DNA from: a virus
Taxonomy: Duplodnaviria; Caudoviricetes
Virus record (IMG/VR): IMGVR_UViG_3300001598_000034
Coordinates: 32,001 to 96,000 of that record
Length of the DNA stretch: 64,000 nucleotides
Reading direction: 5' to 3' (one strand)
Position numbers and translations under genes: made by a program. How positions within the stretch are numbered: position 1 is the stretch's first letter; every line of letters begins with the position of its first letter. This document shows positions 1 through 27,488 of the stretch, piece after piece. The notes below the pieces were generated by a model. The model ran no database searches. It was not told the DNA's origin and was given only the letters and a program-made list of their open reading frames with translations.

Positions 1-32
1 TTTACTATCTATAATCACTACTATCCCTCCTT

Positions 33-1919
33 TTATTTAAACAAAGCAGTTTGTTCTTCTGTGGCAGGATGTAACTCAATAACCTTAGTATCGTCTGTAT
101 CATTGCAAACACTTGAGAACTCATTTACAAGTGCAGCTTCAGATCTGCTATTGAAAATTAATTCATCAATACTAATAACTCCACCGTTCGCCAAGTGTTC
201 ATCTAAGCACACCTCAAAATATTTTTCAAGCATAGACAAAGACTCATATTCAGAATCACCTTCATCAGCATCATCAACAAGAGATGCAAAGTTAGTAATC
301 ACATCCTCAATAAACTCAATATACTCTCTCCTCAATTTCTCTGGTGCATGAATAATATGAGCTAAGAAATCAATAAAGTAGTAATTAGTTTCAGAGTGGT
401 CATGAATAAACTGACTAATAAATAAAACATTCTGATCAAAAACATTAGAAATTAACGCTTTTTGATATTTAGACAAACCTTCCCAGAATGCAATCAAATT
501 CCAATTATTATTTACAACATCCGTAGAGTTGAGAGTAAGTGCCGCGATCTTAAACCCGTCAGCAGTGTATAGAGAATTAAACAAATCACTGTCTTCTGCT
601 AAATCATAGCTGCTAGCTGAAATATAGGTTTTAAGCAAGTAAGCATGCGCTCTGGCATCCATGTTTTTGATAAGAGACTCAGTATTATAGGTATTAATAA
701 GATTATACCCATTAGTATAGTCAATTGCATCCGGAATACCAATGTCGTCTCTAACCTCTACCATATCACGCGCATCGAAGAATCTAATAATGTCACTATT
801 ATTAACATTAGCAGCATTATAATCAAAAGACATGCTTTCAAGATAATTCATGGTACCGATTTCAATGTCTTCCAATAACTCTGCAGGTGCTGGAGTTACT
901 TGTGCTACTCTTAATGCTTGAGGTGCTTGTGTTTCTTTTTCTTCTTTTTTGCTTTCTGTTGAGCGATTACTGACAGAGTATTTATTAACATAAGTACCTG
1001 TTTCATAGTATCTACCATAGTAAGGATTTGTAAGATATTCTGAACAATAGTAGCCTTTAGCCACAGCATAAGAAGAAGCATTCTTAGTAACCTTAGTTTT
1101 AATTTCCGGATTACCAGGACCAATATTTTCCTTTTTCAGCATAGCTTTCTCTTCTTCCTCTGTAAGAGCAAAGATATCACTAAGTTTTAGATCTTTTTGG
1201 AAACTGTTGCATTTAACACGTGCTTTATATGTAACGTCCTTATCAAAAGTACCAAGTACTACATAGAAACATACTTCATTTTCATTTGCATCATCAATAC
1301 CACTCCAAAAAGCAGACATAGAATTATGTGAATGAAGTTCACACACAAGCTCATTCTCAGTGCGCAACGTTTGAATCTTAGGATCATCTGGATAACTTAC
1401 ACTAGCCTTAGAAATCTTTTGTTCAGGATAATAAATAAAGTATTCATCTGTGCCACGTTTCTTATAAATCTGTGCAGCAGCTTCATCACCAGAATCTTTA
1501 TAAATAATATTAAAAGACCCAATAATTTCTTTGATAAGATCAGCAGGAATTTTATTATTAATTGTAAGTTCTTTAATTCCCTCATTTGCATCTTCAAGTA
1601 ATGCACACTCTTTTACTTTTTCTACAACCTGTATATTATTTCCTCCAACGTGCATACTTGTTTTCACATAAAGACCACCTTTAGCAGGGAAATAAATATT
1701 CTGTTCAGTATCAGCTTCAGCTTCAGCAGCATAAACAGAATCCACAAATTTATTTCGTGCAAACAACATAGTCTTTTTAATTCTTTCAAGAGCAGCTTCT
1801 TGTTCCTTAGTACGTTTAGGAGTAGTTGTTACTTGTTCTACAGTAGTGCCACTACCTCCACTGTACTTTTTCCATAAATTTTTATAATCTTCATAATATT
1901 TAGAATAATTATACGTCAT
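33..1919 (-). CDS. Prokaryotic JAB/MPN+ metallopeptidase (PRTRC protein A-like) with long C-terminal extension
   Basis: Upstream Glu (GDEAAAQI) plus ELHSHNSMSAFWSGIDDANE = JAMM HxH-x7-S-x2-D motif; neighbours E2 and Ubl genes. Confidence 0.85.
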   Translation of the reverse strand: MTYNYSKYYEDYKNLWKKYSGGSGTTVEQVTTTPKRTKEQEAALERIKKTMLFARNKFVDSVYAAEAEADTEQNIYFPAKGGLYVKTSMHVGGNNIQVVEKVKECALLEDANEGIKELTINNKIPADLIKEIIGSFNIIYKDSGDEAAAQIYKKRGTDEYFIYYPEQKISKASVSYPDDPKIQTLRTENELVCELHSHNSMSAFWSGIDDANENEVCFYVVLGTFDKDVTYKARVKCNSFQKDLKLSDIFALTEEEEKAMLKKENIGPGNPEIKTKVTKNASSYAVAKGYYCSEYLTNPYYGRYYETGTYVNKYSVSNRSTESKKEEKETQAPQALRVAQVTPAPAELLEDIEIGTMNYLESMSFDYNAANVNNSDIIRFFDARDMVEVRDDIGIPDAIDYTNGYNLINTYNTESLIKNMDARAHAYLLKTYISASSYDLAEDSDLFNSLYTADGFKIAALTLNSTDVVNNNWNLIAFWEGLSKYQKALISNVFDQNVLFISQFIHDHSETNYYFIDFLAHIIHAPEKLRREYIEFIEDVITNFASLVDDADEGDSEYESLSMLEKYFEVCLDEHLANGGVISIDELIFNSRSEAALVNEFSSVCNDTDDTKVIELHPATEEQTALFK

Positions 1920-1938
1920 GCAAATATCATCCCTTTCA

Positions 1939-2739
1939 TTAATTACCTCCTATTATATTCTCAAACAAGTTAGTTACATTTGTGCCTATTCTTTTCAAAT
2001 ATTGACATGGGAATTCCTTAATCTCTGGTCTAGTTCCTAATTTAGAAATAAGTTCATACTGAGTTGTAATCTCATTTCCAAGAATACCGCCTGGAACTGG
2101 CATCCAATGAGACCCATCACAGACATCTAAATCATGGTTACCGATGGAAGTATAAAGCATAGTTGGGAAATAGTCTACATTAGATTCCGGTACAATTCCA
2201 AGAATATCGTGTCCCATACAACAATTATGCCCAGAATTAAATACATTAGTAAATGGGTAACGATAATAAGTAGTCATCTCCAGAGGCATATTAGTTGTAC
2301 TTAATGCATATGCGTATTGACCATTAAAATTAAACTCACGCTTTCCACAGTCTTCGACTAAAGTTCCTAAAGTAATAATACATAATGGAGGAAACGGTAT
2401 TCTAAACATTCGTAAATTATTTACATTATAGCCTTTGAAACGTTGGTCATGAGAATCTGGAATATATTCATCTAAAGACCCAAACTTAGAAATATCTCTT
2501 GGCGTCCATGATAATACAATATCATTTATGCATCCGTCATAAATAAACAAATACCCACGTCTTCTACCACGATCTATAATATGTCTGCAATTCTTAGGAA
2601 TCTTCATATTAACTTCAATAGTATCAGATGCCAAAGCCTTACATATAGAAGCGGTATCTACTATTTTAGTAGATACCGTTCCATCGCAAAGATCTATTAT
2701 TACTTTTGCAGTTCCATCATTTTTAAAATCTACAAGCAT
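1939..2739 (-). CDS. Prokaryotic E2 family protein (Prok-E2_D / PRTRC protein B-like)
   Basis: YRYPFTNVFNSGHNCCMG resembles the PFxNV-x2-G-x2-CxG catalytic segment; adjacent to JAB. Confidence 0.7.
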   Translation of the reverse strand: MLVDFKNDGTAKVIIDLCDGTVSTKIVDTASICKALASDTIEVNMKIPKNCRHIIDRGRRRGYLFIYDGCINDIVLSWTPRDISKFGSLDEYIPDSHDQRFKGYNVNNLRMFRIPFPPLCIITLGTLVEDCGKREFNFNGQYAYALSTTNMPLEMTTYYRYPFTNVFNSGHNCCMGHDILGIVPESNVDYFPTMLYTSIGNHDLDVCDGSHWMPVPGGILGNEITTQYELISKLGTRPEIKEFPCQYLKRIGTNVTNLFENIIGGN

Positions 2740-2741
2740 TA

Positions 2742-3449
2742 TTATGCCTTTCTAAATACAAATCTACCCGTTTCAGGATCCAATACAAACCTCCCAGATT
2801 TAGGGGCTGACTCTTCTTTTACTGCCACTACCTCTTCTCTAGCATTCTCTTCCTCAATGGCGTCAAGCTCATTAAGTTCGCTAGCAGTAGGTTCCTCATC
2901 GTCTTTTTCTTTATCATCGGCATCTAGAAAGTGCTCGCCTTCAAGTAAAGAATTAATACGCTCTTCAAAATCCGCATCATCAAACTTTACTCTATCAGTA
3001 GTTTTTTTAGGGGCTTCAATTTCTTTTTTAGCATGCACCGCCAAATATTCACGAGCAGCATCGATTTCTCCATCTGGACAATTCATCCACATAATATTAC
3101 CATTATAAATAGGCACACCCTTTTGATATTGAGTATTACCATTAACAGTAATCTCGCGGTATGCTTGAACATTACCATTATTATTAGTAACTTTCATAAC
3201 AGATTCTGCACGTTCAACACGGTCCTCAGGAACCTCTTTTTCAACAGCTTCATCAATGCTCTTCTTCAATTGAGCAAAGTCTTTACGCATTTGCTCTCTA
3301 GCATCCGCTATCTTAATATTGATCTCATCCTGTACACTTTGGAATTCTTTAAACATATGATCCAAAGCTAATACAATATTCCCGGGGTTAGACTCAAACT
3401 TTTCAAAATTAGGTAACATCTTATTTCTCCTTTTCATTAAATACTTCAA
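2742..3449 (-). CDS. Hypothetical acidic coiled-coil protein (start probably MLPNF at 3419)
   Basis: ORF tightly packed in operon; AAGGAG RBS before 3419. Confidence 0.6.
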   Translation of the reverse strand: MKYLMKRRNKMLPNFEKFESNPGNIVLALDHMFKEFQSVQDEINIKIADAREQMRKDFAQLKKSIDEAVEKEVPEDRVERAESVMKVTNNNGNVQAYREITVNGNTQYQKGVPIYNGNIMWMNCPDGEIDAAREYLAVHAKKEIEAPKKTTDRVKFDDADFEERINSLLEGEHFLDADDKEKDDEEPTASELNELDAIEEENAREEVVAVKEESAPKSGRFVLDPETGRFVFRKA

Positions 3450-4272
3450 TAATTTTCTGGGTAGGCAATTTCTTAAATTTTTCTACAAACTTAATACATC
3501 CATCCTTAGCTACTGTTGCAAATGCCCCAGTATCATGTACACTTTCAGAACATTTCTGTATTACATATTCTTTTTGAAAATTTTCAAGAAGCTGTATTCT
3601 ACAAACACGGCAAGTGTCAGTAGTAGCTACAGGATTTTTACCAAAAGAAATATCTGGTACATAACCAATGCCTAACCCTCTGTTTAACGATTCATAAACG
3701 TCAGGAAGATAATGTTCCAAGAAACAACCTAGCTTAACACAATATTTTAACTGTGCTAATTCTACTTTAAATCTACTAGCAGTATAATTATTATCAAAAT
3801 AATTATAAGGAACATTATATACTAGCGTATTTTTATTTTTTAAATAATCAATATACTCATTTGACTTTGCCAAATTATAAACAGAGATAATCCATGCCCA
3901 TTTAGTAAAATCAAAAATAGCTGGTGGTAAGGTAATAATTGTCTTACTTAATTCACAATGTGTATCTATCATCAAATTACTATTATGTATATATTTCATA
4001 ACTAATTTATTACAGTCTTCTTTATACATAGTAGTAAAGTTATATAATGGAGTGTCATATATTTCCCAAAAGCAATTTTCATGAACATCAGTCAATGGGA
4101 TATATTTCTTAATTTCTCTTAAATAATTCCAAATACCCTCTAAACATCTTAATTTAGGAGATGCATTTAATAATGTCTCTTTAGTAATGTTTTCAGGATG
4201 GTTTACACCATTCATATAAGAGTAACTAAACAAACTTTCGATAAACATTGTTGCATTAGGTATCATACTCAT
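3421..4272 (-). CDS. Hypothetical protein in Ubl/E2/JAB operon
   Basis: 283 aa ORF with ATGA-type overlap with upstream gene. Confidence 0.6.
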   Translation of the reverse strand: MSMIPNATMFIESLFSYSYMNGVNHPENITKETLLNASPKLRCLEGIWNYLREIKKYIPLTDVHENCFWEIYDTPLYNFTTMYKEDCNKLVMKYIHNSNLMIDTHCELSKTIITLPPAIFDFTKWAWIISVYNLAKSNEYIDYLKNKNTLVYNVPYNYFDNNYTASRFKVELAQLKYCVKLGCFLEHYLPDVYESLNRGLGIGYVPDISFGKNPVATTDTCRVCRIQLLENFQKEYVIQKCSESVHDTGAFATVAKDGCIKFVEKFKKLPTQKIIEVFNEKEK

Positions 4273-4565
4273 ATAAGAATTCTCCTCTTTCTAGATTTCT
4301 TTGATTCAGGAATTTTATTCATCAAGATTAATTGTAATGCTTCAAGGGATTCAACATTATTTCTCCTAATGTTTTCATTAACAGTATGTAAATAGTACAT
4401 TCCATAATCGAGGAGGTCATCCTTTGGAAAGTCCTTATCTAATAGTTCTTCTAAGGTATTAGCCTCAAATAAAGATTTAATATTATTATCGTTCTTATCT
4501 AAATACACATTAGGTAAAGACTTGACACCAGCAAGTAAGTCTAATTCAGTATTATCGTTTTGCAT
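4269..4565 (-). CDS. Hypothetical protein
   Basis: 98 aa ORF with AAGGAG RBS. Confidence 0.6.
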   Translation of the reverse strand: MQNDNTELDLLAGVKSLPNVYLDKNDNNIKSLFEANTLEELLDKDFPKDDLLDYGMYYLHTVNENIRRNNVESLEALQLILMNKIPESKKSRKRRILI

Positions 4566-4612
4566 CTACATAATGTTCTCCTTTTTACTAAAAACGAAAA
4601 TTTTAAAAACCT

Positions 4613-4705
4613 TCGCCCTATGAATATTAAAATATACTATTCTTGCCGAAGACGCAATGATCTCCTCAAAGGCAGTAATAATATATTTTAATATTCATAG
4701 GGCGA
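4613..4705. repeat. Perfect 24-bp inverted repeat (IR1), putative RNA processing stem
   Basis: tcgccctatgaatattaaaatata (4613-4636) / tatattttaatattcatagggcga (4682-4705). Confidence 0.9.
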
Positions 4706-4809
4706 TTAAATAACTTGATCAGCTGTTTTTGTTTTACGTTTTTTATTTATATGTTAAATATCTCTTAGCTGACCTATTTAAGTCGCCCTATGTAGTGACT
4801 AAGGGAGCT

Positions 4810-4885
4810 GATTAGCAGCCATTAGTCTGTGTACGTACAGACTAACGGGTCAGATTAGCAGCCCTTAGTCTGTGCACGTACAGAC
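4810..4885. repeat. 33-nt direct duplication of the Ubl gene 3' end (2 mismatches)
   Basis: gattagcagccattagtctgtgtacgtacagac (4810-4842) vs gattagcagcccttagtctgtgcacgtacagac (4853-4885). Confidence 0.9.
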
Positions 4886-5100
4886 AAGTTTGCACTGTAT
4901 ACATGCATACCATTTGCATCCACGCCATCATCACTCCAAGAGGAAATGCGTGCGTTAGTGGGGAGGTTAGGAACTTGAGCACGAACTGCCTCAATGCAGT
5001 CTTCATCACTGAGAACTTCATCAGCAGTCATGAAGGGGAACTCAAAATCTCCATATCCAGCCACACGAATAATCTTCTTAATCATTTCATTTTGTTGCAT
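4855..5100 (-). CDS. Prokaryotic ubiquitin-like protein (PRTRC protein C / Prok_Ub-like)
   Basis: 81 aa; VPNLPTNA and C-terminal QTKG-C resemble the YPELTTA...GTKG pattern of PRTRC-C; first gene of the E2/JAB operon; AAGGAG RBS. Confidence 0.7.
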   Translation of the reverse strand: MQQNEMIKKIIRVAGYGDFEFPFMTADEVLSDEDCIEAVRAQVPNLPTNARISSWSDDGVDANGMHVYSANLSVRAQTKGC

Positions 5101-5159
5101 AGTAGTAATCTCCTTAAAATTTTAAATAGTTTTTGGTTGTACTTTAACTGCCAGCTTGC

Positions 5160-5260
5160 ATACTATTCGTGATTAATATAACTCGATAACGATCTCTTAA
5201 TCTCCGAATCTCACTTTCAGGCGTAATTATCGCCGATACTTTCACGACAGTTTCGTATAT
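5160..5260 (-). ncRNA. Putative structured RNA module in operon leader
   Basis: Minus-strand pairings acugucguga/ucacga-a-uagu and cgauaau/guuaucg, with G-U wobbles only on the minus strand. Confidence 0.4.
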
Positions 5261-5310
5261 ACTATATTTCGGCTCCACTCAAAATATAGTTCTATAGATG
5301 AACCATTATC

Positions 5311-5517
5311 TATAGATATAATATTCTTTGTAACCGCGATCATCTCCCGAGATGTACTGGACGGTTCCTGGCAATGATCATTCGAGGCGCTGCCGGTACC
5401 GGCGGGCGACACTCTTCATACGGGCGTATGCTCTAAGCATACGCCATGAAATAGAAAGAAAGAGAATTCCCTTTCATTTTTTAAATTAAAGGTCTTACAA
5501 AGAATATTATATCTATA
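5311..5517. ncRNA. Putative ncRNA module closed by perfect 23-bp inverted repeat (IR2), GC-rich multi-stem interior
   Basis: Arms 5311-5333 / 5495-5517; internal stems ggcgtatgct/agcatacgcc, gccg-gtac-cggc, gatcat/atgatc, catctc/gagatg. Confidence 0.6.
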
Positions 5518-6275: not shown

Positions 6276-7031
6276 ATGACTACAGATAAAAACGATAAAG
6301 TATCTATTGGAGAAAAAGTTAAAACAAAGCATTCTATTCTAACTTATAATCCAGATACAAATTCTAATACCTTTCTAGACTATACCGAAAAGACCTTACA
6401 TACAAACTATGATAAGCTATATGAAATCAAAACAAAGAGAGGCTATAGCATAAAGGTAACAAATGACCATAGCTTAATAACTAATGGTTCTGAAGACTTT
6501 TTTGAAAAGGTGTCTCCAGATAAAGCTCTTGGTAAGTTTGTTCCAGTTCTGTATAGTTTAAAATGTGGATTTAAAAAGTACAAAACAGCAAAAGACTTAA
6601 TCAATGATAAGCATACAATAGAATTAACTGCAGAATTATTAAAGTATGATGATATGACTATATGCGCAATAATATCCTTATTGTCTGTACCAGATAAAGA
6701 TGATGAAAAGTTAATGCATATTAGATACTTTAATAAACTAGAAAAATACATTATTCTTTTACTACTTGCAAGGTTATCTTATTTTGTAGAGAAAATAACA
6801 GATGAAGAAATCTTAGCAACACTTTATAAAGGAAAACAAATACCAGAAAATAATAAACTAGTAGATGCAGAAGAAGTAGTTAACGACAATCCTGCTAATC
6901 CATACTTATCACTTCCTTACTCCTGGGATGAAATAATAGAAGTGAATGAAGTAGAGAGAGAAGAGATTACCTATGATTTCTCAGTGCCGCGATATCCATT
7001 ATTTATGGCGAATGGAATCATAGTATTTGAT
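6276..7031 (+). mobile_element. Intein fragment (putative IntC, 252 aa) lacking block A, ending VFD before +1 Thr
   Basis: Block B LYEIKTKRGYSIKVTNDH; block F/G TYDFSVPRYPLFMANGIIVFD/T. Confidence 0.8.
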
Positions 7032-8984
7032 ACAGTAATGGTTCATACACCTGTATCAGCAGAAGCCAGACAAGAAGCATTAGACAAGATGCTTCCTAGC
7101 AAAAACTTATTCCATCCACGCACAATGGCGCCTATACTAATGCCACGTCAGGAACATATCTTCGGTTTTTATCAAGCATCAAAAGATATTCCAGAGTTAA
7201 GAAAGAGCAATGTTAAAGCAGAATCCGTTATGGATTTGGATAAACTTCTTCAAGATATTAAAATGGGAAAAGTAAAACCAGATATGCCTGTAAGATATCA
7301 AGGGCAATTAACAACAGCAGGAATTGCAATAGCTATAGGTAATTTGCCACCGATGCTTAGAGACTACAATATGGTATGGGATAAAAAGAATATTACAAGA
7401 GTTATGGGAATGTTGGCAAAGCAAGAACCAACTAAATACCAATTTGTAGTAGATCTTTTTAAAGAGCTAGGTGGTTTATATGCTTATAAATTAGGATCAA
7501 CTTTCAAACTATCAGATTTTGATTTACAAAAGTTGAAAAAAATGCGCGATGCGTATTTCTCTAAAACAGACAAAGCTTTAGCAAAGATTGATAATAGCAA
7601 TTTATCTAAACAAGAGAAAGAACAGCGCATTGGTGAAGAACTACGTAAAGCACAAGCATTTGCCTCCAATTTAATGGAACAGCAAACAAATAATACTTTC
7701 AATAGACTTTATGTATCCGGAGCAAAAGGAAGTGGAGGACAGATAACACAGATTTTATCTAGTCCTACAGTAGTAGCAGACCCTAAAAACAGATTGATCC
7801 CTTCTCTTATTCACCATTCATATTTAGAAGGACTAAGCCCTGCAGACTATTTTACATCAAGTTACGGTACACGTAAAGGTAGTATTGCAGCTAAATTATT
7901 TGTAGCACCTGCAGGAGCTCTTTCCAAAGAAATAATGGGAAATACTCTAGAAGTAGTAGTATCATGTAAAGAATGTGGTACTGGTAGAGGGTTAAAGAGA
8001 GACATAGATGATAAAGAAAATGTTCTCTATAGACTAGAGGCAGGAACAAATAAATTCATAGATCCAAATTATTATGAACAGTTAAAAAGAAAAGGAATCA
8101 GAGAAGTAACCGTTCGTAGCCCTGCAACATGTGAAGCAAGAGAAGGTGTTTGCCAACATTGTTTCGGTTTTGATGAAAAGATGCAATTCCCAGAAATAGG
8201 CGAAAATGTCGGAGTAATGGCGTCCCAAGCAGTATCCGAAGTAATTTCTCAGAATACCATTTCTTCTAAGCATACAGCAGGAACTGCAGCAGAAGATAAC
8301 TATGGATTTAATGAAGTTAAAGCTTTCTATAATATGTCTTCTAAGTTCTCTGGAGCAGCTGTTATTTCTGAGGTATCTGGTAAAGTATCTAAGATTGAGC
8401 AGTCAGCAACTGGAGGTATGAATGTATTTATAGACAAAAAGAAATACTTCGTACCCCCTGGAAGAAGGGTTACAGTTGTCTTGGGTCAGGATATTAAAGC
8501 TGGAGATCCTATTTCAAATGGAATTATGCCATTTAGCAAAATAGTTCCTCACAAAGGTATAGAACAAGGTAGGCAACTCTTTATTGAAGCAGCTAACGAT
8601 ATTTATAATAAAGCTGGTGCACATACAATAAAGAAGAACCTAGAAACAATTTCTCGTGGACTTATTAACTATGTAGAGATAACAGACCCAGGAGATTTTG
8701 ATGAGTATGCAGAAGGAGATATTGTGGATTACAATAAGCTCATGGGAGATCTGCGTATGCACCCTGGTAAAAAGAAACCAGTATATCACCCAATCCAAAG
8801 TGGCACAAATAAATCCCCAACATTTAAAAACGACTGGTTAGATAACTTTGGCTTTAAGTTCTTAAAACAAAAACTTATTGACAACGCAGCAACGTTCTCT
8901 AAATCTCCGAAGAAACAATATAATCCAATCGCACCCTATGCACGCGGAGTTGGATTCGGAAAAGGTGAAAACGGAAAATACTAA
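6276..8984 (+). CDS. rpoC: DNA-directed RNA polymerase beta' subunit, C-terminal part, with N-terminal split-intein fragment
   Basis: TVMVHTPVSAEARQEA (=QMAVHVPLS after NADFDGD), SGAKGS, SYLEGL, bridge helix YGTRKG, Zn site CGT...RSPATC...CQHCFG, GENVGVMASQAVSE, trigger loop KHTAG. Confidence 0.92.
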   Translation: MTTDKNDKVSIGEKVKTKHSILTYNPDTNSNTFLDYTEKTLHTNYDKLYEIKTKRGYSIKVTNDHSLITNGSEDFFEKVSPDKALGKFVPVLYSLKCGFKKYKTAKDLINDKHTIELTAELLKYDDMTICAIISLLSVPDKDDEKLMHIRYFNKLEKYIILLLLARLSYFVEKITDEEILATLYKGKQIPENNKLVDAEEVVNDNPANPYLSLPYSWDEIIEVNEVEREEITYDFSVPRYPLFMANGIIVFDTVMVHTPVSAEARQEALDKMLPSKNLFHPRTMAPILMPRQEHIFGFYQASKDIPELRKSNVKAESVMDLDKLLQDIKMGKVKPDMPVRYQGQLTTAGIAIAIGNLPPMLRDYNMVWDKKNITRVMGMLAKQEPTKYQFVVDLFKELGGLYAYKLGSTFKLSDFDLQKLKKMRDAYFSKTDKALAKIDNSNLSKQEKEQRIGEELRKAQAFASNLMEQQTNNTFNRLYVSGAKGSGGQITQILSSPTVVADPKNRLIPSLIHHSYLEGLSPADYFTSSYGTRKGSIAAKLFVAPAGALSKEIMGNTLEVVVSCKECGTGRGLKRDIDDKENVLYRLEAGTNKFIDPNYYEQLKRKGIREVTVRSPATCEAREGVCQHCFGFDEKMQFPEIGENVGVMASQAVSEVISQNTISSKHTAGTAAEDNYGFNEVKAFYNMSSKFSGAAVISEVSGKVSKIEQSATGGMNVFIDKKKYFVPPGRRVTVVLGQDIKAGDPISNGIMPFSKIVPHKGIEQGRQLFIEAANDIYNKAGAHTIKKNLETISRGLINYVEITDPGDFDEYAEGDIVDYNKLMGDLRMHPGKKKPVYHPIQSGTNKSPTFKNDWLDNFGFKFLKQKLIDNAATFSKSPKKQYNPIAPYARGVGFGKGENGKY

Positions 8985-19979: not shown

Positions 19980-20003
19980 AAAATTATAGAAGGGAATATA
20001 AAT

Positions 20004-20432
20004 ATGTTTGTTTCTAATCTAACAAATCGCAGTCTTGGACTTGCAAGCCCTGTAGTATTACGTCCTAATGAAATAAATCGTTTCATTGATGATGAAAATA
20101 TTACCCTTGTAGAAAGCGTTTGGCGCGCAAAAGCAGCTAATCTCGTTTCTGTTAGTGAGACAAAAGGCATGGTTAAAACCATTGCAGCAACAGCAGTGAA
20201 AACACTTACTTTCGATGCTGGAGCATTGGGGAAAGAACCAAGATCTTCTGGTAAACATGTAGAAGAAGTTAAAGAGGTTCTTAAAGAGCGCTTGTCTGAC
20301 AAAGAAGAAAAAGTAGAAGAAGCTAAAGAGGAAATTGTATTTGAGAATTTAGTAGAGTCTTCAAAACAAAAGAAGTCCAAAAAACAAGAAAAACAAGATA
20401 AGCAAGAAAAGCAAGACACACAAGACAAATAA
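20004..20432 (+). CDS. Hypothetical protein with Lys/Glu-rich tail
   Basis: RBS; follows capsid gene. Confidence 0.6.
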   Translation: MFVSNLTNRSLGLASPVVLRPNEINRFIDDENITLVESVWRAKAANLVSVSETKGMVKTIAATAVKTLTFDAGALGKEPRSSGKHVEEVKEVLKERLSDKEEKVEEAKEEIVFENLVESSKQKKSKKQEKQDKQEKQDTQDK

Positions 20433-20458
20433 CCTGAATAATTTAAGGAGATAACACA

Positions 20459-20734
20459 ATGTATAATAATGATTATAATGCGTTGAATGATGCATGTGAA
20501 TTTGCAAAGATAGCAGCTGATATGAGTTTGCCTTTGGATCAAAAACCTGCTCCTGAAGCTGGCAGTCAAATCGTTCAAGGTATGGTAAATGCGGGTACAG
20601 CTTCTCCCACTTCCGTAGGGCAACAAGTATATGCAGATCCTGTTGATGCTGAAGCGTTAGCCGAAGCAAAAGAAGAGGCTGCAGCAGTATTGGCAAAGCA
20701 AGCATCTGTAATTCGTGCTATTTACGGTTTGTAA
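20459..20734 (+). CDS. Small head-associated protein
   Basis: AAGGAG RBS; AKIAA, AKQAS. Confidence 0.55.
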   Translation: MYNNDYNALNDACEFAKIAADMSLPLDQKPAPEAGSQIVQGMVNAGTASPTSVGQQVYADPVDAEALAEAKEEAAAVLAKQASVIRAIYGL

Positions 20735-20765
20735 TAGCCACCCCTGAAAGGGAGGTATAATAACC

Positions 20766-23009
20766 GTGTACACGAATATAGAAAATTTAAAAAAAGAAGC
20801 AGGAGTTATTGGCACAGCCAAAGCATTAGCATATGGAACTGTTGGATATCATCTTGGAAAACATGTAAAAGAACAGGAATATAAAGATGAAATTATAGAA
20901 AATATGCGAAGACAAGCTGAGGCACACAATAAATATGCTTCTTTAGAACGCAGAGTATTAGAAAAAAAAGCGGCAAGTATACTAAGTAAAGCTATAGGAA
21001 GGGGTTTATCTTCGGGGTTTAATAGAGTAAAGAACTTTTTCAGAAAACCAGTAAAATTTAATCCAGGTGCTGTCAATAAAAGTACAACTAATATAGCAGC
21101 AGGAACACAAGGAGTTTGGACACCATCAATAAAATCAACGTCTAACACAATAAATAGTATTTCTGATATCACTAAAGGAAATTCTTTCTATAGAAATGGT
21201 TTTTATTCTGCTCCAAAATCTATTGTCGAAAAAAGCAAAGATCTAGTAAAGAAAAACTTGCCAAAACTTCCTTCAATTGAAGGAGCAAAAGTAAAGGCTA
21301 AGGAAAGCATTCAAAAAGCCAATGAAAGTATTAAAAAGTTTCCAAAAGCAAGAGAAGAAACAAAAGCTTTACAATCTCAAACCAATCCTGGTGCATTTGG
21401 ACCCGTTGTTGACGGAACAAAGCCTTCTCAAAGTACATATGCTGTTAGTGGAAATTTATTTGGATCCAAAGGAAAACGTGGAAGATACTTAGGAAATGAA
21501 GTATCTACGGAATTTTCCTCAGAAGGATTATCAAAAATAGCACCTACAAATCAATTTGATGGAATATTGCAGAATCCAATAAACGGTGAAGCAACTGGAA
21601 AAGCTATAGAAACACAAAATATAGAAAAACTACGAAAAGCAAAACCAGTAAAAGTTGACCCCAAAACACAGTATACAATTCCAGCTACTAATAAGACAAC
21701 TAATCCAAAAATTGATAAACATACTATCAGTACTAAAGGAACAGTTACTGGACAAATAGCCAGTGGACAAAATAAGGCTGTAGAATATCTTAAACCCCTT
21801 GAACTAAAAAAGGATATTACAGGAACTCCTATAAAAAATTCCAACCCAGAACTGAATTTATCCATAGAGCCACAAACTAAAGCAGTTATTAGAAACGCAG
21901 AAGCAGGTGCATATGATAATCTAATAGGGAAAGGAAAAGTTTGGAAACCTGGTAAAGATCCTATTTCTGTACGTAGAGCAGCAGAAGAGGCAGCAAAAAA
22001 TCCTAAAAAGTCTTGGTGGGATAAAGCAAAAGAACGCTTCTCTGAAGCTCCCAAAACAAAAGAACAGCGTTTTGCAGAAAATAGATTTGGGGCAGGGGAA
22101 CCTATTCAACCAGATACAAATTGGTCTGAAGTATACAATAGTACTAAGAACTGGGTAAAAAATAACCCGGGAAAAACAATGGCCGGAGCCGGAGCACTAG
22201 GCGGTATCGGTTTATATTCAATGTCATCTAGTGGCAATAAAAATTTAGATAATTACTATTATGGAGGATATAATCCAATGTATAATCAATATAACGCAAT
22301 GAATAAAACTGCAGCAAGTTATGGTAAAAATTTATTTTCTGATTTAGCTACTTTTGCAAAAAAGAACAAAGGGTATTTTGGGAGAACAGGTGGCGCATTT
22401 GGCGACGCAGTACAAGCATATAACCCTTTCGCTAAGGAAAACATTAAAACTTTTGGAAACTTGATCGCTCCTAACAATCCATCCACCGCATTCCTTGGCA
22501 AGACCCGTAGAGTATTAGGCAATGCTATCGCAAGTAATCCTAATGCCGTACGTGCGGCAGTAGCTGGTGTAGGAACCGGAACAGCTGGGTATGGCGCCTA
22601 TAAAATGGTTACTTCTTCTGTAAATGAAGATGATATGGCCCTTGAATACGATGCAGCAGCTAACCAAGCAGCTTTTGCAGAAAATATGTACAATGAAGCA
22701 GTAGAAAAAATGGCTTCTATCGAAGACTACATGGAGAAAGAAGCAGCAAATCCTGTTGCACGTGCAGTATATAATACAGCTGGAAAAGCCGTACGTTACG
22801 GAAACAAGCTCCAAGATAGTGCTAATTATTTCGGATTAGGCTCAGCTTTCCGTAAAAAAGGCGTGGGTAATGCAATAAAAGCACGTACCGGAGCAAGCAT
22901 TGCAACATTGGCCAGCTTGGCTCAAAAGAATCCTAACGTAGCAGCAGCTCTCGCAGCAGGTGCAGTAGGCGCAGGCGGCGTAGCTGGAGCTCGCGCAGTA
23001 ATGTACTAA
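20766..23009 (+). CDS. Putative internal head/ejection polyprotein
   Basis: Leader MYTNIENLKKEAG; basic segments with Gly/Ala hydrophobic stretches separated by K-x-A sites; GGAGGT RBS, GTG start. Confidence 0.55.
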   Translation: MYTNIENLKKEAGVIGTAKALAYGTVGYHLGKHVKEQEYKDEIIENMRRQAEAHNKYASLERRVLEKKAASILSKAIGRGLSSGFNRVKNFFRKPVKFNPGAVNKSTTNIAAGTQGVWTPSIKSTSNTINSISDITKGNSFYRNGFYSAPKSIVEKSKDLVKKNLPKLPSIEGAKVKAKESIQKANESIKKFPKAREETKALQSQTNPGAFGPVVDGTKPSQSTYAVSGNLFGSKGKRGRYLGNEVSTEFSSEGLSKIAPTNQFDGILQNPINGEATGKAIETQNIEKLRKAKPVKVDPKTQYTIPATNKTTNPKIDKHTISTKGTVTGQIASGQNKAVEYLKPLELKKDITGTPIKNSNPELNLSIEPQTKAVIRNAEAGAYDNLIGKGKVWKPGKDPISVRRAAEEAAKNPKKSWWDKAKERFSEAPKTKEQRFAENRFGAGEPIQPDTNWSEVYNSTKNWVKNNPGKTMAGAGALGGIGLYSMSSSGNKNLDNYYYGGYNPMYNQYNAMNKTAASYGKNLFSDLATFAKKNKGYFGRTGGAFGDAVQAYNPFAKENIKTFGNLIAPNNPSTAFLGKTRRVLGNAIASNPNAVRAAVAGVGTGTAGYGAYKMVTSSVNEDDMALEYDAAANQAAFAENMYNEAVEKMASIEDYMEKEAANPVARAVYNTAGKAVRYGNKLQDSANYFGLGSAFRKKGVGNAIKARTGASIATLASLAQKNPNVAAALAAGAVGAGGVAGARAVMY

Positions 23010-23985: not shown

Positions 23986-24450
23986 ATGCCAGCTAAAATA
24001 AAAGTTTATTATGATAGAAACTGCACACAGGAATTAGCAAGAGACCAAAAAACTAATGCATTTTTATATACTTTTTTTAAACAAAAAGAAGATGGAACTA
24101 TACAAGAAGCTGTAGATGGAATACGTGGCGAAGCTGGTAGATGCATATTATATTTAAAAAATGTGGGAACAAGAGCAGCTTTACATCCTCAAATAACCTT
24201 TATATCAACAAACAATCAAGAAATTATCAATAAAAAAGTATACACATGTAAAGATATACCTGTAGATCAAGTAGAAGAACTACAGGTAGACTTTACTATA
24301 AAGGCATGGACAGCAGCACAAATAAGCGAGAATTATTTTTCTTTAGAATATTATTCGCTTCCAGACACTGTATCATATACAAATCCGTATAATTATTATG
24401 CAGAAATAGGTGAAGAAACAAATACCTATGTTACAATAGACGGAGTTTAA
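23986..24450 (+). CDS. Putative virion protein, Ig-like beta sandwich
   Basis: LYLKNVG motif, paralogous to the N-terminus of the next ORF (IYIKNCG). Confidence 0.5.
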   Translation: MPAKIKVYYDRNCTQELARDQKTNAFLYTFFKQKEDGTIQEAVDGIRGEAGRCILYLKNVGTRAALHPQITFISTNNQEIINKKVYTCKDIPVDQVEELQVDFTIKAWTAAQISENYFSLEYYSLPDTVSYTNPYNYYAEIGEETNTYVTIDGV

Positions 24451-24452
24451 AA

Positions 24453-25769
24453 ATGAGTAGTAGCATATCTAACTTAAAACCAGCAATACTAAAGTGTTAT
24501 AGTGATGCTTCTTGCAGTAAAGAGCTAGACAAAGATGGCGCAATATATAGAATTGTCTTAGGCACAAAAGAAGGTTTTAATGGTACAGATGGAGATCAAG
24601 TATCACAATACATCTATATTAAAAATTGTGGAGATACAAATGCTACCGATACGTATATAAAAGAAGTAGGGGACAATGCAAATTGTTTCAAAATATCAGT
24701 AAGGAACATCATTCTTGCTGACATAGTTGCAAATATAGGGACAATTGTACCAAATGAAGTTGTACCCGTAAAAATATCGTCATATATACCAAAAGAATCA
24801 GAAGCAATAGAATCGTTTCTTAACTATACTATATTATACGAATCTGTACCACCTTTTGATACAAACTATTATAAAGACACTGTTACACCAGATAAAATTC
24901 AGTTAAAGTTCTCAAAAAAGTCTTCAACAGGTAAAATAGAAGAAGAATATACTATTAAAAACATAGATAAATTATTTAATGATAGAGACTTTATTTCCAA
25001 GTTAAATATAACACCAGAAATGAGAACTCCTGTAAAAATTTATCATGGAACAACAGACGAAATATACTGGGATAATACATTAAAAAAGTATAAAGTACGC
25101 TTAAAATGTCCAAACTGCGAATCTTGGACTAATTGGGAGAATTTAAATACTTTTGATTACTCAGCAGAGATTATATGTACAAAATGTGCACATAGTATAA
25201 AAGTCGCAAATACTATAAACTTAGCAGAAGAACCAGAATATATAGATATTTTGACAAAATGTAAACTACCTATAAAGGAAGATACCTGGACAAAAAAAGA
25301 TAATTCTGACACCTACTTTATAAGAATAGAAAATGTAAAATCTGCAGTGAGTATCAATGCGTATAAAAAAGCAAACAATAAATTTGAAAAAGTTCTAGTA
25401 AATATATTAGTAAAAGATGGCTGTATAATACTAGAGTCTCTAGCGCCTTTTACAGGATATATATTACTTTTAGAAGAAGAAGCAGTAGACATAGACAACA
25501 TCAAGCCAAAATTCGGCATGGCCTATGGAAAAGGCATCTACGGACATCCTCTATATGGGCAGGAATCTTTTATACATATATCAGATTCAATAGAGATAGA
25601 CATTCCAATAAAGGGACAAGATTCAGTAATGATAGGTGCAGATTTCAAAATTCTTACTAAATATACTGGTCTGGAAGCAAATATAGAAGATATACAAAGC
25701 TATTATACCGATAGATACATGAGACTAGGATGCTATGATGGCCCAGCATTACCATTAAAGCTTAACTAA
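24453..25769 (+). CDS. Putative virion protein with Ig-like domain and Zn ribbon
   Basis: YIYIKNCGD; CPNC...CTKC; YGKGIYG. Confidence 0.5.
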   Translation: MSSSISNLKPAILKCYSDASCSKELDKDGAIYRIVLGTKEGFNGTDGDQVSQYIYIKNCGDTNATDTYIKEVGDNANCFKISVRNIILADIVANIGTIVPNEVVPVKISSYIPKESEAIESFLNYTILYESVPPFDTNYYKDTVTPDKIQLKFSKKSSTGKIEEEYTIKNIDKLFNDRDFISKLNITPEMRTPVKIYHGTTDEIYWDNTLKKYKVRLKCPNCESWTNWENLNTFDYSAEIICTKCAHSIKVANTINLAEEPEYIDILTKCKLPIKEDTWTKKDNSDTYFIRIENVKSAVSINAYKKANNKFEKVLVNILVKDGCIILESLAPFTGYILLLEEEAVDIDNIKPKFGMAYGKGIYGHPLYGQESFIHISDSIEIDIPIKGQDSVMIGADFKILTKYTGLEANIEDIQSYYTDRYMRLGCYDGPALPLKLN

Positions 25770-25780
25770 CTATAAAAATT

Positions 25781-26638
25781 ATGAAAAATAACCCATTTCT
25801 AGAGACACAAAAACAAAAAATAGATGAAAGTGTAACTATAAAAGCAAAGAGAATAACAATACGTATGTCAGAAATTACATGGGAAAACCTAGCTAAAGAC
25901 CTATGGTTTAAAGATGAAACAACAAAAGTATTTCTAGAAAAGTCAGATTCTCCCAAGAGTCATTTTAAACCCATTTGTACTATATCAAAAAATAGTTTCA
26001 ATTCTTACATAGATAATTGTGATTCTTTTTCTTTGTATAGAACAAATTTATTCTATTATAGACTAGTAAGAGATGATAAGTCGCTAGCATCTAAAGTTTT
26101 TTCCTGTGAAAAAGAACACAATTTATTTGGGTCAGAAATGGTATATAGACATAGTATTCAGTTAAAAGAAGGACACTCAGGTAGCCCAATGTACCTATTT
26201 ATAAAAAATAGAACATCCCAAAGATGCCCAGAGTGTTGGGATGATATTCGATCTGTAAGAACTAAATCAAATTGTAAAGTATGTCTAAATACTGGTTATA
26301 TTACTAGTTATTGTGATCCAATATGTATTTATATGTCTGTTTCACCAGAACAAATAACAGTACAGCAGGAACAACTTGGAACATCTGTAGAGGGAAAGAT
26401 ACAAGCATGGACTGTAGCATACCCGCGCATTAATCTAGGAGATGTCATTGTAGATCCAGCAACGCAAGATATTTGGTGTGTAAGCAATGTAAATATAACT
26501 ACGCATAAAAGAACGCCAACAAAACAAGAACTAACTTTAGATAGACATTCAGAAGATACTGCAATAAATAAGTTATTATCTTTAATTCCAGATAATATGA
26601 ATAAAGAAGACATCCGTCATGGAGAATTTTTATATTAA
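25781..26638 (+). CDS. Putative head-closure/neck protein with Zn finger
   Basis: RCPEC-WD...CKVCLNTGY, PRINLGDVIV; position before terminator and sheath. Confidence 0.55.
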   Translation: MKNNPFLETQKQKIDESVTIKAKRITIRMSEITWENLAKDLWFKDETTKVFLEKSDSPKSHFKPICTISKNSFNSYIDNCDSFSLYRTNLFYYRLVRDDKSLASKVFSCEKEHNLFGSEMVYRHSIQLKEGHSGSPMYLFIKNRTSQRCPECWDDIRSVRTKSNCKVCLNTGYITSYCDPICIYMSVSPEQITVQQEQLGTSVEGKIQAWTVAYPRINLGDVIVDPATQDIWCVSNVNITTHKRTPTKQELTLDRHSEDTAINKLLSLIPDNMNKEDIRHGEFLY

Positions 26639-26641
26639 ATT

Positions 26642-27394
26642 ATGGGAACAGTTATAATAGATAAAAGAAAAAGTAAAAGTTATTCTGGAACTAAACCAGA
26701 ATATACACCTGGAATAAAAAAATCTCCAAGCAATTTAACACCTCGTATAGTAAGTTCATTGTTTATTTTAGCATTACAACATTATTTTATTTCTCATCCA
26801 GAATATAGATGGGATCCAGACGGTAATAAAACAGAAATAGATATTCATGCGGAGTGGGAAGAAGACGATAATTTGGAAAAAGGCCTTCCAATACTAATAG
26901 TACAAAATGGTCCGATATCAATATCACCCGCAGGAATAGGCACTGGATTAGCTTCCTTGGAACCTAGAATAATAAAAAGGGGAAAAGAAACAATGGAAAA
27001 ATCAGCTATATTAGACTCTCAATTACAAGCTACAATTGAGAGTAGTATTAATATAGCCGTAACAGGAATGAGTAGTGATGATGTTAGTGAATTAGCTTTT
27101 ACTATTGGCATGTTTTTATTAACATTAAAGTATGACATTGCATCAGTACTGCAACTACAAAGTATAGGAAATATACAAATATCACCAGCACAAGTATTAA
27201 GTAAAACAGGATGGACAAATAGATATATAGCTCAAATATCTATAGGCTATACTTTTACTTTAGCAAAAATATGGGAACCATTGGATGTTGGGACTCTAAT
27301 AAAAGAAATTATAACTGATGTATCTACAAAAACATCTCGTCCAACAACCCCAACAACCTATACACACAATACATTAAAGCAAGTACGCAATTAA
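26642..27394 (+). CDS. Putative tail terminator/completion protein
   Basis: LPILIV motif; immediately upstream of sheath. Confidence 0.5.
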   Translation: MGTVIIDKRKSKSYSGTKPEYTPGIKKSPSNLTPRIVSSLFILALQHYFISHPEYRWDPDGNKTEIDIHAEWEEDDNLEKGLPILIVQNGPISISPAGIGTGLASLEPRIIKRGKETMEKSAILDSQLQATIESSINIAVTGMSSDDVSELAFTIGMFLLTLKYDIASVLQLQSIGNIQISPAQVLSKTGWTNRYIAQISIGYTFTLAKIWEPLDVGTLIKEIITDVSTKTSRPTTPTTYTHNTLKQVRN

Positions 27395-27413
27395 TGCAAA
27401 AATTTTAAAATAT

Positions 27414-27424
27414 AGGTATAATAT
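27414..27424 (+). promoter_or_regulatory. Class A phage promoter
   Basis: AGGTATAATAT-atatTAGA. Confidence 0.75.
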
Positions 27425-27488
27425 ATATTAGAGAATAGACTTAACTAATACAGATAAACAAATTATTTTAAAGCGAGGTAATCTCAAT

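Follow-up and report, generated by a model that had tools for sequence, protein, structure and literature searches.

The stretch of DNA considered here, which we call the window, comprises bases 32001-96000 (64,000 nucleotides) of the 146,590-bp IMG/VR virus record IMGVR_UViG_3300001598_000034 (Caudoviricetes; completeness estimate 92%), and it opens with an operon of seven co-oriented minus-strand genes that runs from position 5100 down to the window edge, its last gene continuing beyond. We consider it likely that this operon is a phage-encoded cassette for conjugating a ubiquitin-like protein (Ubl), related to the PRTRC cassette of bacteria (ParB-Related, ThiF-Related Cassette; NCBIfam TIGR03735-03742). 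It encodes a candidate Ubl, an E2-like protein, a JAB/JAMM metalloprotease and a ThiF-type E1, together with proteins that we refer to as g98, g283 and g235 (Table 1). A preliminary description of the window, made from its letters alone, had singled out an 81-aa gene ending in QTKGC, a gene encoding PFTNV..GHNCCMG and a JAMM-motif gene, and all three are present where it placed them, co-oriented on the minus strand. It had also predicted that the gene running off the window edge from the GTG at position 18 encodes an E1; this gene is an 825-aa open reading frame of the ThiF type. From position 4565 down, the junctions from the g98 gene to the E1 gene are all tight or overlapping, and each gene has its own ribosome-binding site.

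The E1 matches the Pfam family ThiF (PF00899) at 29.1 bits against a cut-off of 28.1 (E 6.7e-7), and it has a nucleotide-binding GxGxxG motif, an Arg finger and a Mg-binding Asp. The residues G55xGG..G61, D88, R99/Q100, K111, D324/D327 and C697, the last within a SCAxRA motif, are invariant in an alignment of 17 homologues. The conserved core of the protein is made up of its N-terminal part, a DCVDKTT segment and the C-terminal 90 residues, and large insertions lie between these parts, the window protein having 825 aa as against 494-561 aa in its relatives. The JAB protein matches Prok-JAB (PF14464), the family to which the preliminary description had assigned it, with an E of 2.8e-5 and 24.4 bits, just below the cut-off of 25. 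Its five JAMM residues, E146, H196, H198, S206 and D209 (E...HxHx7Sx2D), are invariant in seven homologues. The catalytic domain spans approximately residues 140-240 and is accompanied by an N-terminal domain and a C-terminal region of about 320 aa.

For the E2-like protein, profile searches support the earlier assignment to Prok-E2_D. Prok-E2_D (PF14460) is the sole Pfam family matched by the E2 proteins of the clade, six of whose seven members match it (best E 4.2e-6); the window protein does so at 16.8 bits against a gathering score of 25 (E 0.0058). The same family occurs in 29 of the 30 ESM Atlas clusters nearest to the E2, and a structure comparison with a Prok-E2_D cluster gives template modelling (TM) scores of 0.59/0.70. 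An alignment of homologues contains the invariant motif P162-x-x-N165...C174-x-G176 (PFxN..CCxG), in which Cys174, following P162..N165, is the candidate catalytic residue. Used as a single query sequence against viral contigs, the E2 gave no match, and a structural search with VIA using its AlphaFold2 (AF2) model returned RWD, FANCL and Ubc9 domains with Z of 3.6-5.0, which is weakly suggestive.

The named models closest to these enzymes are those of the PRTRC cassette. PRTRC_ThiF (TIGR03736) is the best NCBIfam match of the E1 (E 6.1e-17, 61.8 bits, cut-off 144.75), and PRTRC_A (E 5.2e-11, 42.5 bits, cut-off 101.8) and PRTRC_B (E 7.6e-5, 22.2 bits, cut-off 131.45) are the sole NCBIfam matches for the JAB protein and the E2, respectively. 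The 81-, 98-, 283- and 235-aa proteins have no NCBIfam match at E <= 1, so that PRTRC C (the Ubl), D, E and F remain without a counterpart among the matches. We regard the operon as a divergent form of the bacterial PRTRC cassette that is specific to phages.

The 81-aa protein has no match in Pfam, PHROG or PADLOC either, and a word-based homologue search with it recovered the protein itself alone. An exhaustive profile search, by contrast with the word-based one, recovered a family with at least 17 sequence clusters, whose proteins are 72-91 aa long. The C-terminus of every member reads (R/K/Q/V/P)-(A/S)-Q-x-K-G, either bare or with one or two extra residues, and Q77, K79 and G80 are invariant across the family. 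Among 16 relatives the ending is KG in six, KGC in six and KG plus two variable residues in four. Read from the sequences, these bare and extended glycine endings are the pattern of processed ubiquitin-like modifiers. Together with a four-copy precursor described below, they lend indirect support to the earlier proposal that the extra Cys of the window protein marks a pro-form matured by the JAB protein.

The AF2 model of the 81-aa protein has a beta-beta-alpha-beta-beta arrangement and a disordered, flexible tail of low predicted local distance difference test score (pLDDT; 76.6 overall). When this model was compared with 48,161 chains using VIA-align, the best 50 matches were nearly all Ubl or beta-grasp domains (Z 5.0-5.8), among them SF3A1-Ubl, FAT10, SUMO, Fubi, ISG15, UBX, PB1 and the bacterial Bil Ubl (8tyz_B, Z 5.3). 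We read the protein as a beta-grasp protein because this list is near-uniform and not because of the scores. A Foldseek list for the same model likewise consists mostly of SUMO, ubiquitin and PB1, yet with E >= 0.02, and the ESM Atlas model has TM scores of 0.57/0.62 to a Prok_Ub cluster. The predicted fold and the conserved terminal glycine thus support a beta-grasp Ubl. The preliminary description had placed the protein in Prok-Ub; that placement holds for the predicted fold, and in sequence no Prok_Ub model matches.

Genomic contexts of the relatives were taken solely from scans of IMG/VR and GTDB. An alignment-based scan of IMG/VR gave 17 loci, and seven contigs of 85-162 kb (L003-L008 and L010) have the order Ubl, a protein of about 99 aa, a protein of about 500-585 aa, E2, JAB and E1. 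Because seven contigs keep this gene order and the motifs quoted above fall on invariant columns, the operon is not a chance assembly. In the three contigs that were checked (L003, L005 and L010), the RNA polymerase beta' gene that divergently adjoins the operon in the window does so again, with an identity of 51-54% as against 23-47% for the operon proteins. The fixed adjacency to the RNA polymerase gene, together with the lower identity of the operon proteins, indicates that the cassette is an old, vertically inherited and faster-evolving part of the lineage and not a recent island. No full-length relative of the phage-type E1 was found in 185,579 bacterial and archaeal species (one genome each), where short N-terminal ThiF similarities alone were recovered. 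The 146,590-bp record has a Terminase match, and neither an integrase match nor a ParB_N match (E <= 0.01) was found in it. Megablast of window positions 1-5400 against GenBank phages returned no match, and PHROGs gave no useful match for any operon protein. In the window, the divergently adjoining RNA polymerase beta' C-terminal gene occupies positions 6276-8984 and has a Hint/intein-like segment at its start.

One more distant relative (L011, IMGVR_UViG_3300042923_000307) carries at positions 2897-3613 a 238-aa protein of four near-identical tandem repeats of about 58 aa, each ending in VVAQNKS, directly upstream of genes for a protein of about 100 aa, a 331-aa protein, E2, JAB and E1. In-register alignments connect the repeat with both the phage Ubl profile (P 0.013) and a Prok_Ub-like profile (P 0.008), at values that are statistically weak. 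On the repeat alignment together with the position of the gene, the protein reads as a putative polyubiquitin-like precursor that would need a processing protease, with units that end in Ser and not Gly. A Pfam CUE match on this protein was set aside as a probable artefact of the four-fold repeat, no single stretch being above threshold. Shorter PRTRC-like cassettes with an E1 of about 270 aa were observed on five other viral contigs of 93-239 kb (L012, L013, L015, L017 and L019). These encode 132-188-aa proteins in which a C-terminal Prok_Ub-like domain ending in VVPVVxGAKKG follows a Lys/Pro/Glu-rich low-complexity region, so that the Prok_Ub-like proteins of viral PRTRC-like loci likewise end in GAKKG. 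Another locus (L014) encodes a 110-aa protein ending in ATKG.

From these observations a working scheme for the cassette can be proposed, in which we infer processing, activation, transfer and reversal from the established chemistry of E1, E2 and JAB proteins. A short transcript, terminated in most cases at the hairpin behind the gene, would supply the 81-aa beta-grasp protein in excess. The JAB metalloprotease would trim the C-terminal Cys and expose Gly80, which would then be adenylated by the ThiF-type E1 and probably held as a thioester on Cys697. The tag would pass to Cys174 of the E2-like protein and from there to a lysine of one or more targets, and the JAB protein could reverse the modification. 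In this scheme g98 and the relatives' protein of about 520 aa, here split into g283 and g235, are candidates for the role of specificity factor or substrate. A possible extension, which we advance tentatively, is that the pathway is pro-viral, the phage-made Ubl tagging, in the course of infection, host proteins of defense or housekeeping or proteins of the phage itself, with the protein of about 520 aa serving in target recognition.

Table 1. Genes and elements of the operon (window positions unless marked otherwise; RBS, ribosome-binding site)
Feature	Position	Strand	Remarks
Ubl candidate, 81 aa	4855-5100	minus	ends ...VRAQTKGC; strong RBS AAGGAG
Structured intergenic spacer, Ubl gene to enzyme genes	4566-4854	minus	stem-loop, 29-bp hairpin, U-rich tract
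g98, 98 aa, conserved small operon protein	4269-4565	minus	basic C-terminal tail KKSRKRRILI
g283, 283 aa	3421-4272	minus	position of the N-terminal half of the relatives' ~500-585-aa protein
g235, 235 aa	2742-3449 as called (TTG start)	minus	likelier ATG at 3419 with its own RBS
E2-like protein (Prok-E2_D / PRTRC_B-like), 266 aa	1939-2739	minus	contains YPFTNVFNSGHNCCMG
JAB/JAMM metalloprotease, 628 aa	33-1919	minus	contains ELHSHNSMSAFWSGIDD = HxHx7Sx2D
ThiF-type E1, 825 aa	GTG at 18; genome 29541-32018	minus	RBS AAGGAGG; runs off the window

The 289-nt spacer that separates the Ubl gene from the enzyme genes has a minimum free energy of -106.5 kcal/mol (z = -11 versus shuffles). It contains a stem-loop on a duplicated Ubl 3' end (4810-4883), a 29-bp perfect hairpin (4614-4704) and then the U-rich tract. 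The duplicated part is the 31-nt end of the Ubl gene, CTGTACGTGCACAGACTAAGGGCTGCTAATC (4853-4883), which recurs 43 nt downstream at 4810-4840 with two mismatches; in each copy CAGACTAA is paired with the TTAGTC(TG) that follows. The second copy may have been left behind by a tandem duplication of the Ubl, or the element may belong to a regulatory stem-loop. Four relatives (L003, L005, L008 and L010) have a gap of 254-290 nt at the same position that ends in a strong hairpin and a U-run, and the sequence of the gap is not conserved. The spacer has no Rfam match. We infer that its hairpin is terminator- or attenuator-like and may yield more Ubl than enzymes.

Upstream of the Ubl gene, a sigma-70 scan placed two promoter-like sites, overlapping each other, at 5334-5283; these may be what the preliminary description had called tandem class B promoters. 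Sites of this kind are, however, hardly more frequent in the AT-rich region than expected (41 versus 29 ± 5.5). In the same place, a GC-rich structured segment of about 160 nt lies between the arms of a 20-bp inverted repeat (TAGATATAATATTCTTTGTA at 5496-5515, complement at 5313-5332), and the promoter-like stretch overlaps one of these arms. The possibility that ATCTATAGA upstream of the Ubl gene is a recurrent promoter element was rejected, as it occurs a single time in the window.

Among the other operon proteins, g98 is matched at E 1.7e-5 by a hidden Markov model of the same-position proteins of about 99 aa in the relatives, and it has no match in Pfam, PHROG, NCBIfam or PADLOC. The g283 and g235 genes (283 + 235 aa) occupy the position of a single gene of 494-585 aa in the relatives. 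Identity of the two proteins to this protein of about 520 aa is 13-22%, with weak N-terminal similarity (E ~0.04), and g235 shares with it an acidic tract and, at the C-terminus, the motif SGRFVL.P. Thus g283 is probably the N-terminal half and g235 the C-terminal half of what is, in the relatives, one fast-evolving protein. No Pfam or PHROG family matches g283. A CxxC...C...H arrangement near its C-terminus was considered as a RING or treble-clef E3 and rejected, since the cysteines are not conserved in the homologues of about 520 aa.

Several points weigh against the proposal of a PRTRC-related conjugation cassette. Every PRTRC model score lies far below its cut-off. All 17 members of the Ubl family lack a Prok_Ub (PF14454) profile match at E <= 1, and an hhalign comparison of the Ubl with the Prok_Ub-like proteins of the PRTRC-like viral loci gave an E of 0.23, which is not significant. 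The structural matches of the Ubl have Z of 5-6, modest for any fold, and the terminal motif is KG (KS in the four-copy protein) and not GG. For the E2, the AF2 model has pLDDT < 50 at residues 165-179, around the putative catalytic loop, and Foldseek of this model against the PDB returned no clear E2 match and nothing interpretable. Since the model is poor at the catalytic loop and its fold matches are weak, the E2 fold rests on the profiles and the P162-N165-C174-G176 motif. Searches of PDB sequence profiles with the Ubl and E2 alignments produced chance-level rows alone. Finally, we know of no experiment on this phage system or on any PRTRC system, and of no demonstrated function for PRTRC.

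The same genes could be read in other ways. A counter-defense role, in which the JAB protein strips host-added Ubl or cGAS-type conjugates of the Bil or type II CBASS kind, or in which the phage Ubl, E1 and E2 compete as decoys, is unlikely. It would accord with the antiviral nature of bacterial Ubl systems, which act on phage structural proteins (PMC11601596), and the protein of about 520 aa, only 13-27% identical among relatives whose RNA polymerase exceeds 50%, behaves as expected of an arms-race component. However, a deubiquitinase alone would be enough for stripping, yet the full Ubl, E2 and E1 set is kept clade-wide with its active-site motifs intact. Moreover, the defense E1-E2 models of PADLOC match the nucleotide-binding stretch of the E1 and nothing else in it (weakly; best E 1.6e-5), and the PADLOC models for Bil, type II CBASS and Bub match none of Ubl, E2, JAB, g98, g283 and g235.

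We regard as very unlikely a sulfur-carrier or adenylation system of the ThiS/MoaD-ThiF type, in which the Ubl would form a thiocarboxylate for modification of a cofactor, tRNA or DNA/nucleotide. ThiF-family E1 proteins and Gly-terminated beta-grasp proteins are indeed also the core of sulfur pathways (PMC1779556), the E1 has weak secondary NCBIfam matches to ThiF/ThiS adenylyltransferase models, and the E2 fold is not confirmed structurally. Against this, searches of the E1 and its neighbors revealed neither a rhodanese domain nor one of another sulfurtransferase, and the operon combines a JAB protein with an E2-like protein whose Cys is invariant, a combination that Iyer et al. connect with conjugation-type operons in which the E1 never bears a rhodanese domain (PMC1779556). 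Tandem poly-Ubl precursors are, in addition, typical of modifiers. The least probable of the alternatives is that the cassette serves in maintenance, partition or addiction in the manner of PRTRC, or forms a defense island against competing phages, having been taken up from a mobile element and playing no lytic role. Its appeal lies in the PRTRC models being the closest named ones and in the location of PRTRC cassettes on integrative and conjugative elements (ICEs) and plasmids. The canonical cassette is also annotated as a 'partitioning cassette' in temperate Burkholderia phages (PMC13366799), and one is annotated in a Phocaeicola prophage; PRTRC-like genes in a phage are therefore not new as an annotation. 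However, the record lacks a ParB or integrase match, the low PRTRC scores and the unmatched C, D, E and F do not fit such a module, the position beside a core RNA polymerase gene is fixed in the three related phages checked, and the long form of the E1 was not found in the bacterial genomes searched. Taken together, these points argue for old vertical inheritance within a lytic-type phage lineage.

Three other genes of the record were noted to the left of the window, beyond the E1 gene, all on the minus strand. Genome positions 19988-22225 (L002:988-3225) encode an RNA-repair enzyme, a 745-aa fusion of kinase, phosphatase and RNA ligase (AAA_33 + Metallophos + RNA_lig_T4_1). Positions 24063-25343 (L002:5063-6343) encode 426 aa that begin with an S-layer homology (SLH) domain, and this domain hints at a host whose cell wall has SLH-anchored proteins. 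A GIY-YIG/NUMOD1 homing endonuclease follows at 25639-26850 (L002:6639-7850), and the gap of about 2.7 kb between it and the E1 gene (26850-29541) has no open reading frame of 70 aa or more. Elsewhere in the genome, at 119559-120044 (L020), two in-frame stops (TGA and TAA) fall inside the Terminase_6N match; the large terminase gene may thus be interrupted by an intron or intein or be split, like other genes of the same phage.

In its architecture the operon fits a bacterial arrangement that Iyer et al. (2006) listed as type 6d, with a small Gly-terminated Ubl, a helical protein, a Cys-bearing E2, a JAB protein with an N-terminal domain and an E1 (PMC1779556). We take the NCBIfam PRTRC cassette to be this operon type of Iyer, Burroughs and Aravind. 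The phage operon resembles PRTRC in having separate genes for a Gly-terminated Ubl, an E2-like, Cys-containing protein, a JAB protein with an extra N-terminal domain, a ThiF-type E1 and helical proteins of no assigned function. It differs in that its E1 (825 aa) and JAB protein (628 aa) exceed those of PRTRC in length by a factor of two to three and contain large insertions, in that its Ubl belongs to a separate sequence family ending in AQxKG, and in that it has no ParB and no match to C, D, E or F. Its carriers differ as well, being large phages without integrase as opposed to the ICEs and plasmids that carry PRTRC. A full-text literature search found no mechanistic study of PRTRC among its 45 matches.

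A comparable row of genes is present in a cultured phage. Salmonella phage Arash (OQ632216; L056, 176281-179301), a lytic 181-kb myovirus, has an E2-JAB-E1 row in the same order as the window, gp248c-gp247c-gp246c, with matches that are Prok-E2_D-like (E 0.024), Prok-JAB (1.4e-7) and ThiF (7.8e-15). The two systems are distant, with 37% identity over 86 aa of the E1, and no Ubl was recognized in Arash. The Arash record labels gp246c-gp248c as 'structural' or hypothetical proteins, and gp246 and gp248 are listed among the proteins detected by liquid chromatography-mass spectrometry in phage preparations, where ThiF and ubiquitin go unmentioned (PMC10585845). We did not rely on the 'structural protein' labels, as that proteome listing runs to 116 proteins, many of them metabolic enzymes (PMC10585845).

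Arash offers a cultured, distantly related E2-JAB-E1 row that is open to genetics, and the AQxKG family, with its bare, extended and tandem forms, is a clean set of substrates for the study of JAB processing and E1 specificity. To our knowledge, bacterial Ubl conjugation has been seen experimentally only as a host weapon against phages, in Bil and type II CBASS, and is otherwise unexplained, as in Bub and PRTRC. Here the whole Ubl toolkit is owned by the phage and inherited at a fixed place beside an RNA polymerase gene in a clade of large, uncultured phages. If the operon does conjugate, phages would use protein tagging as eukaryotic viruses do, and the PRTRC superfamily, annotated on many mobile elements, would gain its first functional handle. 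If the tagging is pro-viral, no complete and functional pathway of Ubl conjugation would have been known before from a virus of bacteria, and PRTRC-like phage cassettes, including those of the present clade, of Arash-like myoviruses and of many viral Prok-E2_D clusters, would then be widespread and unrecognized infection tools.

Set beside the systems already described, the cassette is built from the same four kinds of component as Bil (BilA, Ubl; BilB, E2; BilC, JAB; BilD, E1), with no E3 among them, and bacterial cassettes of this kind do form lysine isopeptide conjugates (PMC11601596). Bil protects the host against viruses by tagging a structural protein of the phage, whereas the present cassette is carried by the phage. 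Shared with type II CBASS, in which Cap2 is an E1-E2 fusion and Cap3 a JAB protein, are an adenylation domain of the ThiF type, an E2-like Cys and a JAB protein as antagonist. In type II CBASS, however, the C-terminus of the cyclase takes the place of the 'Ubl' and a single protein joins E1 to E2, whereas here E1 and E2 are separate and the Ubl is a dedicated protein; no cyclase or effector was seen in the operon. The Bub system (6E / DUF6527) likewise comprises a bacterial Ubl, an E2, an E1 and a peptidase that matures a fused precursor (PMC11601596). It differs in using serine oxyesters and the DUF6527 serine protease, whereas the phage E1 and E2 keep invariant cysteines and no operon protein matches DUF6527 in Pfam. 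The sole previously discussed phage pairing of a Gly-terminated Ubl with a JAB protein is that of lambda/T1 TAPI (Ubl) and TAPK (JAB + NlpC/P60) (PMC1779556). That pairing stands inside a tail module without E1 or E2, whereas the present operon has the full set and lies beside an RNA polymerase gene. What is new here is a phage-restricted clade, in a genome without an integrase or ParB match, that has a new Ubl family of bare, extended and tandem forms, a much enlarged E1 and JAB protein and a fixed synteny with the RNA polymerase gene.

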